Source: Bythopirellula sp.
GTDB lineage: Bacteria; Planctomycetota; Planctomycetia; Pirellulales; Lacipirellulaceae
NCBI GenBank assembly: GCA_965216565.1
Contig: OZ244170.1
Location: forward strand, 2,240,001 to 2,304,000
Direction of reading: 5' to 3'
DNA length: 64,000 nt
In this document: positions 12,134-54,093 of the stretch, piece by piece
Layout of the letters: the number at the start of each line of letters is the position of its first letter
Numbering within the stretch: the first letter of the stretch is position 1
Made by a program: the position numbers and the translations under genes
The notes under the pieces: model-generated
Told to the model about the DNA's origin: nothing
Seen by the model: the letters and a program-made list of their open reading frames with translations, nothing else
Database searches by the model: none

Positions 12134-13084
12134 ATGTCTACCGCTCGTCCGACCGAATCATTTTGGGATCGCCTCTGCTTCTACTCTGGCCCTTCCGACC
12201 ACGGGTCGATCCATGTGGGACTGCTTCTGCTCAGAATATTTGCCGGGGTGACGATCGCCGGGGCAGGGCTGGACAAGCTGCCTACCTCTACCTGGTTTGC
12301 CGGGCAAGTTGGTGATATTGGTTTCCCTCTTCCCAGTACGTTTGCATTCCTCGCAGCTTTCTCAGAATTTGCCGGCGGCTGGTTGATCGTAGTCGGACTG
12401 CTGGCACGGCCTAGTGCCTTTCTCATCGCGTTCACCATGGGTGTCGCCTCGATCACCATCCATGCCGAAGTGCCCTTTTTCGGACTCAACATCGCTCGTT
12501 TGTATTTCTGGGTTTTTCTGGGATTGACGTTCACCGGTGCCGGTAGGTTTTCTCTGGACCAGTTGGTGCGCACTGGTGCTCTGCCCAAGACTCTCGTCGT
12601 GATAATTCCTCTGCTGTTGCTCGGCTACGGTGGTTACCGCGAATGGGTATTCGAGCCGGAGGTCCAGGAACCCGTTGCTTTCGATCCTCAGGAAATCCAG
12701 CAAATGAGCGTTGCCGGCAGTTTCAACAACTGGGATCTAACCGCGACCCCGATGGAGCAGGACGAACAAGGAGTATGGAAAACCACGGTCGAGATCGAAG
12801 AATCGGGGCCCATTGAATTCAAGTTCGCCGCCAACGAAGACTGGGCTCTTAACACTGGCGCCCCTCCCGAGGCAAAATCGGCATTCCCATTGCAGGCCGT
12901 AGGCTTGATTTCGCTCAACGCCAACCCAGAGAATATCAAAGCCTACATCCCCAGGGCTGGCAGCTACGAGTTTACCTTCGACCCCAGCGATTTCTCGTAT
13001 TCTCTGGACGCTACTTCTCTGAACGCTACGAAGAACGCTGAAGAAGCGGGCAACGAGCGGCCAGCTTCGCCGGGGCCTCGCTGA
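12134..13084 (+). CDS. DoxX family membrane protein fused to a CBM48/SusE-like beta-sandwich domain
   Basis: LLLRIFAG...SEFAGG...GAGRFSLD (DoxX), then VAGSFNNWD...EFKFAANEDW. Confidence 0.8.
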   Translation: MSTARPTESFWDRLCFYSGPSDHGSIHVGLLLLRIFAGVTIAGAGLDKLPTSTWFAGQVGDIGFPLPSTFAFLAAFSEFAGGWLIVVGLLARPSAFLIAFTMGVASITIHAEVPFFGLNIARLYFWVFLGLTFTGAGRFSLDQLVRTGALPKTLVVIIPLLLLGYGGYREWVFEPEVQEPVAFDPQEIQQMSVAGSFNNWDLTATPMEQDEQGVWKTTVEIEESGPIEFKFAANEDWALNTGAPPEAKSAFPLQAVGLISLNANPENIKAYIPRAGSYEFTFDPSDFSYSLDATSLNATKNAEEAGNERPASPGPR

Positions 13085-13316: not shown

Positions 13317-14483
13317 ATGGTATCTGCCACTGCATCGCGAAACAGCACAACCAAGAACAACGCATCGAGTAACAAAATGGCTAAGAAGGAAAAAGGGCGC
13401 AAATCTGCCGCCAAGTCTGCAAAGAAGACCGCCGCCGACAAACTGCTAGCGGATAGCCCCGATTTGCGAAACACAGTCGCGGCCATTGAAAAGCAGTTTG
13501 GCGAAGGCTCGATCATGCCGCTGGGTTCCGAACAAACCAAGCGAATTGAAGGCATCCCTACCGGCAGCCTGTCGCTCGATATCGCCTTGGGAGGGCAGGG
13601 CATCCCCAAGGGACGCATCATCGAAGTCTACGGCCCTGAGTCCAGCGGTAAGACGACCCTGGCCTTACACGTGGTCGCCCAAGCTCAGCAAAACGGTGGC
13701 ATTGCGGCATTTATCGATGCGGAGCATGCCCTCGATCCGAGTTGGGCGAAAAAATTGGGTGTCGATCTCGAGACACTTCTCGTCAGTCAACCAGGCCACG
13801 GCGAGGAGGCCATGCATATCACCGAAATGCTGGTCAAGAGTAATGCTGTCGACATCATCGTCATCGACTCCGTAGCAGCACTCGTTCCCAAGAAAGAGCT
13901 CGATGGAGAAATCGGCGACTCGCATGTTGGCTTACAAGCCCGACTGATGAGTCAGACAATGCGTAAACTCACCGGTGCCATTAACAAGAGCAAGACGTCC
14001 GTGATTTTCATCAACCAAATCCGCGAGAAGATCGGCGTGATGTTTGGCAGTCCCGAAACCACCCCCGGCGGTCGGGCCTTGAAATTTTATTCTTCCTGCC
14101 GCATCGACGTGCGTCGCATTGGCCAACTCAAAGATGGCGAAGATGTCGTCGGTCAGCGGGTCCGTGCCAAGGTTGTGAAGAACAAAGTCGCTCCGCCTTT
14201 CCGAGCCGCTGAGTTCGACATGATGCACTCCGACGGCATCAGCTACGAAGGGGATATCCTCGACCTGGGGATGGAGCAGAAAATTGTCGCCCGCACGGGC
14301 GCCTGGTTCCGTTACGGCGAAATGCAACTCGGACAAGGCAAGGAAAAAGCTCGCACCTTCCTCCGCGAAAACCCCGAGACGGCCGAGGAAATCAAACAAA
14401 AGATCCTCGCCGCCGGAGGCTTCGAAGACCTGCTCATGGGTGGTGCCCCGGCTGAGAAAAACGGAGAAGACACCGACGAGTGA
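13317..14483 (+). CDS. recA: Recombinase RecA
   Basis: [46 protein letters not shown]; start 13317 or 13377. Confidence 0.99.
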
Positions 14484-14494
14484 CTGCTTCTGCT

Positions 14495-14534
14495 AAACGC
14501 AAAGTTCGCTGAGCTACAAGAGGGCCGCAGAGGA
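14495..14534 (+). repeat. Left inverted repeat of the GxxExxY cassette
   Basis: AAACGCAAAGTTCGCTGAGCTACAAGAGGGCCGCAGAGGA, inverted relative to 14967-15004. Confidence 0.75.
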
Positions 14535-14538
14535 TCTT

Positions 14539-14991
14539 TTGAAAGCATTGGAGTGTGGAGCGGTGCGGGAAAATCGATTATCTGAAAAAGTGATTGGCTG
14601 TGCTATCGAGGTGCATCGACAGCTTGGTCCCGGTCTGCTGGAATCGATATATGAAGAATCGCTCTGTCACGAACTTTCGCTGCAAGGCATAGGGTATCAG
14701 CGACAGCGTCTGGTCCCCATAACCTACAAGACGCAAACTCTTGCAACGCCACTGAGACTAGACCTGCTGATCGAAAACACACTAATCTTAGAAATTAAGG
14801 CTAAGGAAAATGTTCACCCAATCGACAAGCAACAGTTACTTACTTACCTACGTCTCTCAAACATGCATTTAGGCCTATTGATTAACTTCAACGTCACGAA
14901 ACTCGTCGATGGACTCTCCAGAGTAGTAAACCAACTACCCGAACGATCGCACGAGTCAGAAACTATTCTCAGCGGCCCTCCCTTTCTCTGA
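14539..14991 (+). CDS. GxxExxY protein (PD-(D/E)XK nuclease superfamily)
   Basis: VIGCAIEVHRQLGPGLLESIYEE, RLDLLIE...EIK, QLLTYL, GLLINFN; start 14539 or 14563. Confidence 0.93.
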   Translation: MKALECGAVRENRLSEKVIGCAIEVHRQLGPGLLESIYEESLCHELSLQGIGYQRQRLVPITYKTQTLATPLRLDLLIENTLILEIKAKENVHPIDKQQLLTYLRLSNMHLGLLINFNVTKLVDGLSRVVNQLPERSHESETILSGPPFL

Positions 14992-15042
14992 GCCCTCTGC
15001 GTTTCATCCACTTTTCCCCAACATCGAGAGCGGAAGCCAACA

Positions 15043-15135
15043 AAGAAATAGCGAAGACCCAAGAAATTCGATCTGATTGAAACGCATAACTCAAACTGGG
15101 AGGATCTTGCGCAAGACTGGTCTGTTAACTCTTAG
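15043..15135 (+). pseudogene. C-terminal remnant of a small GIY-YIG nuclease gene (copy 1)
   Basis: Translates KK*RRPKKFDLIETHNSNWEDLAQDW, matching the KxWxRxKKxxLIExxNPxWxDL tail of small GIY-YIG proteins. Confidence 0.7.
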
Positions 15136-15306
15136 AAGTGCACCTCTTCAGGCTAGATCCCTCGGCAGACCTCGGGATGACAGGTTTTCTCAAGCAACAC
15201 CATCAAGTCTCACAGTGGCCCTCATCAACTCTCTCAGCGGCCCTCCCTTTCTCTGAGCCCTCTGCGTTTAATCCACTTTCCCCCAACATCGAGAGCGGAA
15301 GCCAAC

Positions 15307-15399
15307 AAGAAATAGCGAAGATCCAAGGAAGTCGATCTGATTGAAACGCATAACTCAAACTGGGAGGATCTTGCGCAAGACTGGTCTGTTAACTCTTAG
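15307..15399 (+). pseudogene. C-terminal remnant of a small GIY-YIG nuclease gene (copy 2)
   Basis: Translates KK*RRSKEVDLIETHNSNWEDLAQDW. Confidence 0.7.
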
Positions 15400-15530
15400 A
15401 AGTGCACCTCTTCAGGCTAGATCCCTCGGCAGACCTCGGGATGACAGATTTTCTTAAGCAACACAATCAAGTCTCACAGTAGCCCTCATCAACTCTCTCA
15501 GCGGCCCTCCCTTTTTTGAGCCCTCTGCGT

Positions 15531-16220
15531 TTATTTCGACTGGGGAGGCAACTCAAGCTCCCGCGCCTCCCCTTGTTCATTCGCTTGCCACAGTCGACCC
15601 GCTTCTGGCTCGAGCGCCGTCAGCCAATAGCCGCCGTGGCAATAGGTGTCGATGCATACTAGGTGTCCAGCGTTGAATACTTTGCCCTGTTTGTTGGAAG
15701 TGTGACCCACGATGGCGGTCTTGCCCGAACAATGCGTCTTTGGCATCTTCGCCTTGAGAGATTCCCATCGCATCCAACTCCATGGCTGATCGGCTAGCGG
15801 TAAGCTCGGTTCGTAGTTGCCGTGGGCGAAGAAGAAACCTGGAGTTTCGTAATAGTCGCCCCAACTGCGAATAAACTCGACGTGCTCGGCAGGCACAGAG
15901 TCGAGACTACCCTCCGCTGCGTAAGACTGTAGAGTCTCTGTGCCACCGTGAATCAGCCAATCGCCCTCAGGCATTTGGCCATCGATGGCATCAAGCATCA
16001 TCTGCTCGTGATTGCCAAGAATCGGTACGAGCTGGCACTCTCCCGCGAGTCGCATCAAACGTTCAATAACGCCACGGCTATCGGGACCGCGATCAATCGC
16101 GTCGCCCAACATCACGACCACATCATCGGGCTTTAGATCCAATCTGGCGAGTAGAGTATTCAGTGCCCGTAAGCAGCCGTGAATATCTCCAATGGCGATA
16201 GTTCGAGATTCAGAATTCAT
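15531..16220 (-). CDS. Metallophosphoesterase (PPP-type Ser/Thr phosphatase family)
   Basis: GDIHG, GDAIDRG, GNHE, VGHT, IDT motifs. Confidence 0.93.
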   Translation of the reverse strand: MNSESRTIAIGDIHGCLRALNTLLARLDLKPDDVVVMLGDAIDRGPDSRGVIERLMRLAGECQLVPILGNHEQMMLDAIDGQMPEGDWLIHGGTETLQSYAAEGSLDSVPAEHVEFIRSWGDYYETPGFFFAHGNYEPSLPLADQPWSWMRWESLKAKMPKTHCSGKTAIVGHTSNKQGKVFNAGHLVCIDTYCHGGYWLTALEPEAGRLWQANEQGEARELELPPQSK

Positions 16221-16462
16221 TCAATTGAATGGCAAGGATAGGTGGGTTCATAGGACTTGGTGCCAGGACCGAAAATAGAACGAATATCCCTGTTGGATTT
16301 CAAGCCCTAATTGTCGGCAAATACCCACCTGACGTTGATTGACAATTAGCAGCCCACAGATAGGATGACTCATTGAAGTCTCTTCGATCTGTCAAGCGGT
16401 TGTGCGACCCAAGTGATGGCGCACTGCTTGGCACATCGAATATTTAGAACTAATGGCGCTAA

Positions 16463-17842
<1,380 letters not shown>

Positions 17843-17884
17843 CACCAACCAGCTTGGAACGCCTATCTAATTGGACACTAAGTT

Positions 17885-18244
17885 ATGACGAAACGATTCG
17901 CTACACTTGCGAGCTTACTTCTTTTGGCCGGCTGCTCCACTGAGAATGTCTCTCAAACAGAAGCCCCTGCCACCGAGCCTGTCGAAGTCACTGAGACAGC
18001 GTTCAACACCTCCGGTGCCCCGACGGTGAAGATCAACGTACCCGACGTGGTGTGCGAATCGTGTGTGGCCAAGGTAAAAGAAGCGCTCACCTCGCAACCT
18101 GGCGTGAAGGACGTGATGGTCAGCCTGGAGGATAAGATTGCGACGGTGGCGGTCGACAAGCAGGCTTTCGAGCCTCAAGAAGCAATCGCTTTGCTCGTGG
18201 ACTATCAATTCACAAACTCAGCAATGGCTGGCTCCAGCAAGTAA
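17885..18244 (+). CDS. Heavy-metal-associated (HMA) domain lipoprotein
   Basis: Lipobox LLAGC; VPDVVCESCV (CxxC) followed by HMA pattern PGV...VSL. Confidence 0.8.
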   Translation: MTKRFATLASLLLLAGCSTENVSQTEAPATEPVEVTETAFNTSGAPTVKINVPDVVCESCVAKVKEALTSQPGVKDVMVSLEDKIATVAVDKQAFEPQEAIALLVDYQFTNSAMAGSSK

Positions 18245-18270
18245 GCACTCTCGGCTCGAGTCTCTGACTC

Positions 18271-19659
18271 TCACTCCGATGTTTTGCCGAGCTGTTCATT
18301 CTTCGGGTGATAGAACAGTGCGATCGGCAACGTCAGAGCGGCAATGAAAAAGAACATTGCACTACGCGGCCAGTTCTGGTTCTCAATCAACTGTGTTAGC
18401 ACACCGTAGAGAACGCCAGAAATCGCAATACCCACCCAATTGGCCTGATTCATCACGGCGATCATGCGTCCCTTCTTATCACGAGGCGGGCGCGACTGCA
18501 TAAACACCTGCAGCGGCACCGCAAACATGCCAGTAAAGATGCCTAATAGCAAAAGTACGGGAAAGCTCCCCCAAAAACCGAGCCACTGACTCGACTCGCC
18601 CACGCCGGGCTTGCGGAGTAGGTTACCTTCTGCATCTTGCAACAATGAGATATCGCCATCGGCGGGCAATCCCACCAGAACCAGGCAGACGAACATGCCG
18701 ATGCTGCCAATGCGCACCAATCGAAAATCAACTTTGCCGCCGGAAACAATTCCTCCCACCACACAACCGATGGCGATGCCAACACCAATTATTGCGGCCA
18801 ACACGCTGGTCCATTGGTCACCGATTTCTAAAGCCACTTTCCCCAACACATTAACCGCCGAGGGAACCATCCCCGCCAAAAGCCAGAAAGTGCTAGAGAT
18901 CAGCAACGCGGCCAGCAGAGGTTTGTCGGCCCATAACATCTGCCTCATGTCCTTGGGAACTGCTAGAGCAGACGCGTGGAATTTTAGATCGGGATTAGCT
19001 GGTTCAATTTTCCTTACCAGTAGCGAAGAGGCAGTGCCGAGCACAGCAATTGAGACACAGGCTACAGACGCAATCCACAGCTGAGCGCGAAAGTACTCGA
19101 GTAGAATTCCTGCAACCGCCGTCCCGAAAATAATTGCGAGGAAGGTCGTCATCAGAATAAACCCGTTGGCTCGTGGCAAATCCTTGCCTCGGAGCATCTC
19201 TGGCAAAATCCCATACTTGGCTGGCCCAAAGAATCCACTTTGAGCACCCATAAAAAATAAAACCACGTACAGCAGTGTGAGGCTCTGATTGTGGGTATAC
19301 ACGGCGAAAGCCGCAGCCCCCGCGGCCATGACTAGAATTTCCAAGAATTTGCAGGCAACAATAATGCCTCGTTTTCCCAGTTTGTCTGCCAAATATCCGG
19401 CAAGACCCGTGCTGAGCAAAAACGGAATGGAAAACAGCAACATCGCTCGCCCTTGCTGATCCTCCGACTCGGCACCGGCAGCCGCAACCGTGGAAATTGA
19501 GAGCAGTAAAATCAGTTGCTTGAAGAGATTATCGTTAAACGCGCCAAAGAACTGAGTCACCGCCATGCCCCAGAAACTGCGGTCGCGGTAGAGCGTTGGC
19601 AGCGTCGACTCGTCGAAGGAGTCAGTGAGCGCTTCAGAAATGGATTCAGCGGATGCCAT
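18271..19659 (-). CDS. MFS transporter (LplT/Aas-like)
   Basis: TQFFGAFNDNLFK, FGPAKYGILPE, GRMIA; about 12 hydrophobic segments. Confidence 0.88.
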   Translation of the reverse strand: MASAESISEALTDSFDESTLPTLYRDRSFWGMAVTQFFGAFNDNLFKQLILLLSISTVAAAGAESEDQQGRAMLLFSIPFLLSTGLAGYLADKLGKRGIIVACKFLEILVMAAGAAAFAVYTHNQSLTLLYVVLFFMGAQSGFFGPAKYGILPEMLRGKDLPRANGFILMTTFLAIIFGTAVAGILLEYFRAQLWIASVACVSIAVLGTASSLLVRKIEPANPDLKFHASALAVPKDMRQMLWADKPLLAALLISSTFWLLAGMVPSAVNVLGKVALEIGDQWTSVLAAIIGVGIAIGCVVGGIVSGGKVDFRLVRIGSIGMFVCLVLVGLPADGDISLLQDAEGNLLRKPGVGESSQWLGFWGSFPVLLLLGIFTGMFAVPLQVFMQSRPPRDKKGRMIAVMNQANWVGIAISGVLYGVLTQLIENQNWPRSAMFFFIAALTLPIALFYHPKNEQLGKTSE

Positions 19660-19715
19660 GGGACAGATTATGCGGCGGGCAGCATCGGGTCACAAGGCGA
19701 GTTTCAGGAGATCTT

Positions 19716-19753
19716 AACGCAGAGGACTCGAAGGTGCCGAGGGCCGCGGAGAG
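19716..19753 (+). repeat. Left inverted repeat of the immunity-gene cassette (same family as the GxxExxY flanks)
   Basis: AACGCAGAGGACTCGAAGGTGCCGAGGGCCGCGGAGAG. Confidence 0.8.
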
Positions 19754-19787
19754 GAAGTTTCAGATTCTGCGAGCAAGCTCTTGATTG

Positions 19788-20051
19788 CTATTCGATTAAT
19801 TCTTCCAGCATGGTCCATTCCTCGGGAGAAAGCTCCATCAGTTGCCCAAGTTGCTCGATCCTGTTGTAAAGTTCGCCCTTAATTCTTACATCATATTCAT
19901 ATAGCTGTTCGCAAATTAAAGTTAATGCTAGACCCCATTCATTATGGTCCAGCAGATCCAACGCATTTGCGGTGTCTTGTGCTGGTAGAGAAGTTTCGCA
20001 ACTCTCAATGACAAAACGGACTCCTTGAGTGATCGAGCGACGACGAAACAT
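19788..20051 (-). CDS. Probable MafI-family polymorphic-toxin immunity protein (orphan)
   Basis: 87 aa, LDHNEWGLALTLICEQLYEYDVRI...YNRIEQLG pattern; visibly more AT-rich than neighbours. Confidence 0.65.
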   Translation of the reverse strand: MFRRRSITQGVRFVIESCETSLPAQDTANALDLLDHNEWGLALTLICEQLYEYDVRIKGELYNRIEQLGQLMELSPEEWTMLEELIE

Positions 20052-20098
20052 CAGATCAACGTGACCTTTCTACTTTAAGAAACAAGTGCAGTTTTGGA

Positions 20099-20135
20099 CC
20101 TCTGCGGCCCTCCGCTTCTCCGCGCCCTCTGCGTT
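20099..20135 (-). repeat. Right inverted repeat of the immunity-gene cassette
   Basis: Reverse complement AACGCAGAGGGCGCGGAGAAGCGGAGGGCCGCAGAGG. Confidence 0.8.
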
Positions 20136-20515
20136 CAATCCCCCACACCCGGCGATCGTCCGCGATGTTTTTCAATCACTTCCGGCAAAGGATAATCGAT
20201 AATTTTCAGTTCTTTCCCCGCAACTTGCTTGAGCCGCTTCCAGCCACGGGTCATGAGCCGCTCCTGAGTTTGGACAAACTCAGCGTCCAAGCCACGTTTG
20301 TCAAAAGGGCCTTCGATCGTGACGGGTTCGAAGTCGTCGTCCACGATGTACTGCGCTAGAGATTGATTGCAACGAATATGGCGTTCGGCCGTAGTGTGCA
20401 GCACCTCGGGGTCAAGCATTCCCACGATGTAGCGGAGATAGAGATCGCTTTCCGTCAGGTTAGCGACGTCCTCGCCACAAACTTCGCACAGATAACCTTC
20501 GTCGCACTTAGCCAT
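20135..20515 (-). CDS. Hypothetical protein with N-terminal Cys cluster
   Basis: MAKCDEGYLCEVCG...HIRC; follows dapB directly on the same strand. Confidence 0.8.
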   Translation of the reverse strand: MAKCDEGYLCEVCGEDVANLTESDLYLRYIVGMLDPEVLHTTAERHIRCNQSLAQYIVDDDFEPVTIEGPFDKRGLDAEFVQTQERLMTRGWKRLKQVAGKELKIIDYPLPEVIEKHRGRSPGVGD

Positions 20516-37676: not shown

Positions 37677-37949
37677 CTGACGATCCGTTTTTCGCTACGC
37701 ACTCTCCTGATTGTCACAACATTGATTGCCCTGGATCTTGCCAGTTGGCAGGTAAGTCGTGAGCTGGGATTGTTTGCCAACTGCACGCTCCTGGCCGTTG
37801 TGATTGTCTGGGTCGTCCGTCCCTATCGCTTTGGACGATTGGAACCACCCGTGCTCACGGTTCGCAAGCTGGAAAGAGTGGGGGTGTTGAAAGACGGTAA
37901 ATCTAGGGGCAACCCGCGGCTAGCGGTGTCGGCTCAGTCGAACTCCTGA
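37677..37949 (+). CDS. Small membrane protein with RFSLRTLL motif; start unclear, possibly frameshifted
   Basis: Frame reads LTIRFSLRTLLIVTTLIAL... with two hydrophobic segments; no canonical in-frame start before the motif. Confidence 0.45.
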   Translation: MTIRFSLRTLLIVTTLIALDLASWQVSRELGLFANCTLLAVVIVWVVRPYRFGRLEPPVLTVRKLERVGVLKDGKSRGNPRLAVSAQSNS

Positions 37950-47214: not shown

Positions 47215-47293
47215 TGAGCCGACGGCGCTAGCCGCGGGTAGTATCGGGGCAACCTCGAAATCGAAGGTACCCGCGGCTAGCGCCGTCGGCTCA
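47215..47293. repeat. 79-bp REPIN/MITE-like element, copy 1
   Basis: TGAGCCGACGGCGCTAGCCGCGGGTA ... TACCCGCGGCTAGCGCCGTCGGCTCA perfect terminal inverted repeat. Confidence 0.92.
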
Positions 47294-48686: not shown

Positions 48687-48765
48687 TGAGCCGACGGCGC
48701 TAGCCGCGGGTAGTATCGGGGCAACCTCGAAATCGAAGGTACCCGCGACTAGCGCCGTCGGCTCA
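48687..48765. repeat. 79-bp REPIN/MITE-like element, copy 2
   Basis: Identical to 47215-47293 except one substitution; same orientation. Confidence 0.92.
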
Positions 48766-53935: not shown

Positions 53936-54093
53936 TTTGAACAGGAGGGAACAGAGAAAACGGAGATAATTGGTGAGTCTTTTACTTCTTTCAACGAGAC
54001 GACCGTGATCGGATCGTGATGGATGTTTGATATAGGTAGCAAGAAACTTCCCGATTCCCTATTCTCCGTTTCCTCTGTTCCCTCCTGTTCAAA
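53936..54093. repeat. Non-autonomous element with 31-bp terminal inverted repeats
   Basis: TTTGAACAGGAGGGAACAGAGAAAACGGAGA ... TCTCCGTTTCCTCTGTTCCCTCCTGTTCAAA (one mismatch). Confidence 0.88.

Follow-up and report, generated by a model that had tools for sequence, protein, structure and literature searches.

Inverted repeats that follow the lineage of GxxExxY genes: a candidate gene-exchange system in Bythopirellula

The DNA analysed here, called the window, is a stretch of 64,000 nucleotides (nt) of contig OZ244170.1 from the 5.2-Mb genome of Bythopirellula sp. (GCA_965216565.1; G000, other genomes and loci likewise carrying G and L numbers). Behind recA it holds a gene of the GxxExxY family, a predicted nuclease, between inverted repeats. 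Further copies of the same repeat (type A; each copy is called an arm) enclose an unrelated orphan gene of the MafI immunity family. The type of repeat around GxxExxY genes is coupled to the lineage of the encoded protein, and the gene with its arms lies at varied host sites that are empty in relatives. Inward-facing pairs without the gene are dispersed in the genome, arms are kept around new interiors, and in one case an interior has been swapped between near-identical strains. The system is real and stands outside the known families, while its mechanism is what we infer. Probably, to our mind, the mobile unit would be the GxxExxY gene between inverted phased arrays, the enzyme would cut its own repeat type and repair would exchange the interior.

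Repeat type follows the nuclease lineage

The window genome contains four GxxExxY genes, each between inverted repeats of its own, different family. A search of the genus gave 144 GxxExxY matches in 25 of 27 genomes, with 0–10 matches per genome. From these, 113 loci were fetched and nine without a clean motif were dropped, leaving 104 for analysis. Inverted arms were present at 100 of the 104 loci, as opposed to 23 of 104 in the direct-repeat control, and the proposal of an earlier sequence-only reading that the repeat belongs to GxxExxY genes was thereby borne out. Arm likeness increased with protein identity when the type labels were left unused (Mantel rho 0.42, p = 0.001, n = 100). The same arm type was shared with the nearest protein of another genome in 85% of cases, but by only 3% of 203 paralog pairs within a genome. 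About 18 sequence-distinct repeat types were found in the genus, each tied to one protein clade. Repeat type tracks the protein tree, one built on few columns and with many open forks, rather than the genome or the gene that hosts the cassette.

The protein of the window clusters (98/97) with those of genes in G002, G010 and G012 that bear AACGCAGAG arms; the G002 gene ends at a contig end and its right arm alone is visible. Among homologs taken from GTDB, 79 of 80 of which were scored, AACGCxGAG was present on both sides of 17 of the 19 closest, compared to 9 of the 60 others. The close homologs flanked in this way are spread over Planctomycetota, Verrucomicrobiota and Nitrospiraceae. The control is weaker in this set, with 65 inverted against 33 direct scores over the threshold.

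Occupied and empty sites

The nuclease cassette begins 11 nt after recA (13317–14483, plus strand; stop TGA at 14481–14483) with a left arm of four phased units (14495–14533, plus) that departs from the consensus (ACGCAAAG). The GxxExxY gene follows at 14563–14991 (plus), its GTG start at 14563 being inferred from the starts of homologs. The longest open reading frame (ORF) starts at 14539; 14539–14991 matched TIGR04256 with 139.3 bits (cut-off 35), and the protein matched PF13366 (PDDEXK_3) with 130.7 bits (cut-off 22). The frame reads into the first right arm, where its stop codon lies; in G010 and G012 the homologs terminate ahead of the arm. Three right arms are present on the minus strand (14967–15003, 15232–15268 and 15496–15531). 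The extra ones arose when a 264/265-nt unit was recently duplicated in tandem: two units of 265 and 264 nt, each an arm plus spacer, occupy 14967–15495 and are identical at 255 of 265 nt. The third right arm abuts the stop codon of a metallophosphoesterase gene (15531–16220, minus), so closely that the final base of this TAA (15531–15533) is the first A of the arm.

In relatives the metallophosphoesterase gene directly adjoins recA. The two follow each other in 11 of 19 relatives, in none of which the nuclease gene lies between them, and in nine of those 11 the gap is 5–215 nt, as compared to 1047 nt in the window genome. Conversely, genes of the same nuclease clade are found after fabH in G010 and G012, where the window genome has an empty gap of 66 nt. 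Upstream of close-homolog cassettes there are at least nine different host gene families in addition to recA (9 of the 12 upstream ORFs could be named), and the hosts preceding one nuclease clade include recA, fabH, glutamate synthase, transketolase and kaiB. The MafI gene is likewise absent from its junction in all nine genus relatives and all 36 metagenome loci that have both neighbouring genes. Filled and empty alleles at gene ends therefore indicate present or past movement of a unit of gene plus arms from one gene end to another. The sequence-only reading had proposed an element that inserts at gene ends; units of gene and arms do occur at the 3' ends of many unrelated genes, and the recA and hyp126–MFS junctions are empty in relatives.

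The region 3' of recA is likely an insertion hotspot. Gene-less pairs of other repeat families were seen downstream of recA at L008 (G015), L010 (G009), L020 (G003) and L006 (G017), and in G017 a short type A remnant lies directly at the recA stop. A nested copy of an unrelated dispersed repeat with 51 genome-wide matches is present within the right-arm region at 15152–15183, with a second copy at 15416–15447; a simple GIY-YIG motif scan found no nuclease gene beside this repeat. At 13021, toward the 3' end of the gene that precedes recA, sequencing runs X5 and X6 have a 30-nt tandem insertion.

Census of type A repeats

Arms are about 36 bases long and form non-palindromic rows of units of about 9 bases. 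Their design, AA-CGCAGAG-nn-CGC(A/G/T)GAG-n(2-4)-GCAGAG-GGC-CGC(A/G/T)GAG, consists of four phased purine-rich units. The sequence-only reading had placed six repeats in the window (plus strand at 14495 and 19716; minus strand at 14967, 15232, 15496 and 20099), and all six are there. It had also seen correctly that two outer ends abut stop codons (TAA at 15531–15533 and TGA at 20135–20137) and that the left arm lies 11 nt after that of recA. Its consensus of two boxes around a 14/15-nt spacer described a real repeat; the spacer, however, is not random but part of the phased units.

A profile made from the genome's own copies detected 27 type A copies at E < 0.01. Applied to the reversed genome, the same profile gave no match with E ≤ 5, and these repeats are thus not due to chance. 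Sixteen of the copies form eight inward-facing pairs, two are the extra right arms and nine are single; an outward-facing pair was not found among the 27. With host genes approximated as ORFs of at least 100 amino acids (aa), the start of 18 of the 27 copies is no more than 20 nt away from a host stop codon, and six copies directly abut one, the corresponding values for random intergenic positions being 5% and 0.2%. Arms of one pair resemble each other more closely (30.5 of 36 positions) than arms of different pairs do (28.2 of 36; p = 0.008, eight pairs).

No GTAG/CGTC tag was found in the type A arms, and in Rfam the arm has no family, the single match being a chance one (E 1.7). Among listed RNA records none held the region, which is uninformative as to its expression. 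That an individual arm is a hairpin was ruled out by folding against shuffled sequences, where three of four arms did no better than the shuffles (z 1.55, −0.60 and −0.06; the fourth had z −2.31). By eye, no direct target duplication is apparent in the outer flanks, and no close empty allele defines the junction. The bases from −16 to −7 outside the 27 arms are 45% G and often belong to the last codons of the host gene, a value that is without a gene-end control.

Interiors change while arms stay

The second pair in the window encloses the orphan MafI gene (19788–20051, minus; NF033691, 63.1 bits against a cut-off of 31), and the sequence-only reading had named both this family and GxxExxY correctly. 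The left arm is at 19716–19752 (plus) and the right arm at 20099–20135 (minus). No toxin gene lies beside the MafI gene at the locus. The right arm abuts hyp126 (20135–20515, minus), a conserved hypothetical host gene of 126 aa; the final base of its stop TGA (20135–20137) is the first A of the arm. This gene lies downstream of dapB, with which it had been confused. On the other side is an MFS transporter gene (18271–19659, minus); most relatives in which both genes were observed have it immediately after hyp126.

The interiors of the eight pairs have a GC content of 0.36–0.49, the intergenic mean being 0.50. They contain, among others, the nuclease gene, the MafI gene, a 197-aa orphan and a 155-aa putative membrane orphan, with spacer lengths between arms of up to 657 nt. 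Except for nested repeats of other families they share nothing, and no interior occurs twice in the genome. Gene-less pairs hold no GxxExxY remnants, as the profile matched only the four intact genes genome-wide; a simple path in which the gene is deleted and a relic is left is consequently not visible in the window genome.

In the closest relative, G017, five of 15 type A sites are common to the window genome, at eight the window genome has no arm, and two did not resolve. Orthologous arms of the two genomes are 80% identical; the fourfold sites of the flanking gene are 40% identical (18/45). The interiors at the shared sites cannot be aligned. At the MafI site, both G017 and L282, a metagenome locus, carry these arms at an identical stop-codon junction, with other DNA enclosed. 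By this comparison the arms at the MafI site appear to be older than the MafI cargo. Nested pairs, with another GxxExxY repeat type within the type A pair, were observed at the hyp126–MFS junction (L282; L036/L093 of G017), and similar nesting of repeat pairs was seen in L313 and at several G000 sites.

A strain from another study (run X5) is 99.6% identical to the window (12 differences in 3169 aligned bases). Its contig follows the window up to 19703 and again from 20107; in between, 692 other bases replace the 403-nt segment with the MafI gene (19704–20106). The point of return falls within the right arm, precisely at the boundary of its units 3 and 4; what has become of the left arm is not visible. 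The nuclease cassette is retained in X5 (14222–14996, two differences). The region is broken into fragments in runs X6 and X7, and presence or absence of the cassettes is not readable from them. The X5 allele was not found among the metagenome relatives of hyp126, and neither a circular nor a precisely excised form was found among the listed joints, which come from contigs only, 12 further joints being out of view.

Homologs of the cargo genes occur in other settings. None of 10 MafI homologs has type A arms around it, and one is enclosed by paired arms of a different GxxExxY repeat type (type E; L273, G230). Others are found between what we take to be attC-like sites (L275, G181) and RAYT-type terminal repeats (L279, G158), and two presumably follow the ends of toxin-like genes. 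For a second cargo gene, 0 of 18 homolog loci lie within a type A pair.

Features of the GxxExxY protein

A structure model of the protein (predicted local distance difference test 94) has a minimal PD-(D/E)XK fold, the top structural matches being Cas4, lambda-type exonucleases, AdnAB/AddAB/RecB and restriction-like nucleases. No solved homolog was found by sequence. Residues E26, D66 and K78 are conserved in at least 90% of sequences and are presumably the catalytic set, while the near-invariant Y94 would be part of a RecB-type QxxxY motif. In nine comparisons, nonsynonymous differences (pN 0.22–0.27) were fewer than synonymous ones (pS 0.74–0.91), a pattern indicative of purifying selection on the protein. 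Taken as a whole, a Cas4/RecB-like predicted nuclease with cognate repeat ends appears to us the best reading of the system, and a reasonably probable one. The family has been listed with function 'Unknown' and with multiple transfers (PMC3424549). In another paper, one annotation tool called cas4 where another gave a GxxExxY domain (10.1101/2021.01.26.428298).

Proposed mechanism and alternatives

The protein is predicted to bind specifically to the phased units of its own arm type. Cleavage would occur at or just inside the arms, as the X5 breakpoint between units 3 and 4 suggests. Repair would then swap the interior, either by copying from another pair or by capture of foreign DNA, and would keep the two arms of a pair similar, as their within-pair likeness may reflect. 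On rare occasions a new pair would be seeded at the 3' end of a gene; there an arm often provides the stop codon or directly adjoins it, so that the host gene would be spared. Gene-less pairs would stay put, likely as landing pads with exchangeable interiors, and it is likely through such an exchange that the MafI gene entered the second pair. As a broader and more tentative proposal, GxxExxY proteins, of about 125 residues and Cas4/RecB-like, could be the site-specific enzymes behind a new class of mobile DNA in prokaryotes, with many orthogonal protein–repeat pairs, landing pads, and gene exchange that needs neither transposase nor integrase.

Several observations weigh against an enzyme that acts on its own repeats. 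Gene and arms are physically linked and their congruence may come from co-inheritance alone; it thus shows a co-inherited unit, not recognition. The window genome has 51 sites of seven repeat types whose nuclease is not in the genome, and G017 (400 contigs, 93% complete) has at least 18 type A copies and no cognate nuclease among its six GxxExxY genes. At the genome level the link between repeat and nuclease is weak, the strict pattern being found in three of four genomes with the type A gene and in 4 of 23 without it, and kin are not independent in this count. The X5 swap is one contig of one run, and its 692 bases, which are not visible, may or may not contain a left arm or an insertion sequence. 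There is no strong fold match (best Z 8.0; best Foldseek E 1.1e-3). Finally, the type A pair of G002 travels inside a larger transposase-less unit, meaning that other routes of spread exist. That unit (L180–L187) is about 270 nt long, has its own ends and encloses a gene-less type A pair; several of its copies landed inside GxxExxY-type repeats of other families.

Alternatively, the arms could act as RNA. Pairing within the transcript would let the host process the insert out or put up with it, in the manner of intervening sequences, and the nuclease would have another job, such as defence. The pairs would be relics under selection for mRNA structure, and permissive sites would collect cargo. 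All eight pairs face inward and lie at gene ends, orthologous-site arms are conserved without the cognate gene, relatives without type A arms gather other inserts at the same junctions, and MafI homologs occur in other settings too (the attC-like, RAYT-type and toxin-like gene ends as we have labelled them), all as such a role would have it. A structural RNA, however, does not need some 18 distinct arm types, one per protein clade. Nine of the 27 copies are single, and recA and the phosphoesterase gene are convergent, so there is no operon transcript to rescue. We regard the RNA explanation as unlikely.

The sequence-only reading had taken the cargo gene and its two arms for a non-autonomous element, which the nuclease would excise and insert as a unit at new gene ends. 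Cargo pairs do lie at gene ends, at sites that are empty in most relatives, and one MafI homolog (L273) is enclosed by a pair of another GxxExxY repeat type. Against this, no interior recurs in the genome, the MafI-site arms predate the cargo (G017, L282) and are kept around other interiors, cargo homologs in type A ends number 0 of 10 and 0 of 18, and the listed joints, within the scope given above, include no circle or precise excision. What stands of that interpretation is the coupling of repeat and gene, the units at gene ends and the scattered gene-less and cargo pairs, while movement of the cargo as a unit is improbable. Least probable is that cassettes and pairs hitch-hike on ordinary insertion sequences or miniature inverted-repeat transposable elements (MITEs), the nuclease being uninvolved in movement: the eight inspected type A copies of G002 have identical outer flanks in a unit of about 270 nt that landed in other repeats, but the outer flanks of G000 and G017 copies are different at every site, run straight into host gene ends and show no common insertion-sequence end or direct target duplication, and the co-variation of protein and repeat across phyla is unaccounted for.

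Relation to known systems

Free-standing homing endonucleases are lone small nuclease genes between host genes, with empty alleles in relatives. The interior-exchanging nuclease proposed here resembles them in being a lone gene at host junctions with empty alleles, and differs in that the clade follows a repeat type and not one host site (at least nine upstream families plus recA). Integron cassettes are exchangeable small orphan genes in a direct array. Exchangeable orphan genes are a shared trait, and one MafI homolog lies between sites that we take to be attC-like (L275). Unlike integrons, the pairs are inverted around single interiors at scattered gene ends with no direct array, and no integron integrase over the cut-off was found in the window genome (TIGR02249, best 82.5 bits against 265).

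In the way it works, the system comes nearest to REPIN/RAYT and TIRtron systems, which have an enzyme gene between its own repeats and gene-less inverted doublets with a highly variable spacer (PMC8049555, PMC3733652). The present system is similar in having an enzyme flanked by its own repeat type, intergenic gene-less doublets mostly downstream of genes, and single arms that would be decay products. Dispersed inverted doublets that match the enzyme flanks, a REPIN/RAYT trait, are present as well (eight inward, none outward). The differences, which touch the defining traits of those systems, are that the enzyme has a PF13366/TIGR04256 PD-(D/E)XK fold instead of being an HUH/Y1 transposase, that the arms are phased tandem units with neither a palindrome nor a GTAG/CGTC tag, that genomes hold 0–10 matches at varied sites in several phyla as opposed to a single vertically inherited copy, and that the spacers hold whole genes exchanged in place. 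With MITEs and mobile insertion cassettes, as outlined in PMC3733652, the system shares transposase-less DNA between inverted ends of 30–40 nt. Unlike what is outlined there, the interiors are all different, with shared internal sequence only in G002, inside the larger unit; a direct target duplication is not apparent by eye, and the enzyme that goes with the repeats belongs to no known transposase family. Rpn/YhgA-like nucleases are also reported as stand-alone endonucleases tied to RecA-independent DNA exchange or defence (PMC5350276, PMC10400941), but those are of a different Pfam family, PF04754. A published description of repeats flanking GxxExxY genes was not found in a search whose coverage excluded the majority of subscription journals as well as bioRxiv supplements.

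The GxxExxY/PDDEXK_3 family is widespread and has had no function assigned to it; its own flanking repeat is now its predicted substrate. With that substrate, and with about 18 other repeat types as negative controls, the function of the protein becomes directly testable. If the enzyme drives the exchange, the system would let genes be acquired with no transposase or integrase of a known kind; it would also be a source of very small nucleases with sequence specificity. Even with a passive enzyme, repeat pairs that are fixed but enclose different contents in near-identical strains are a type of variable site not reported before.

Other repeats in the window

A second GxxExxY repeat type (GAACAGGAG) forms a gene-less inward pair at 53936–54093 and is cognate to the paralog at G000:832316–832663. 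In addition, a dispersed family with perfect palindromic arms of 26 nt is present at 47215–47293, 48687–48765 and 37912–37936, which we take to be REP/RAYT-like.

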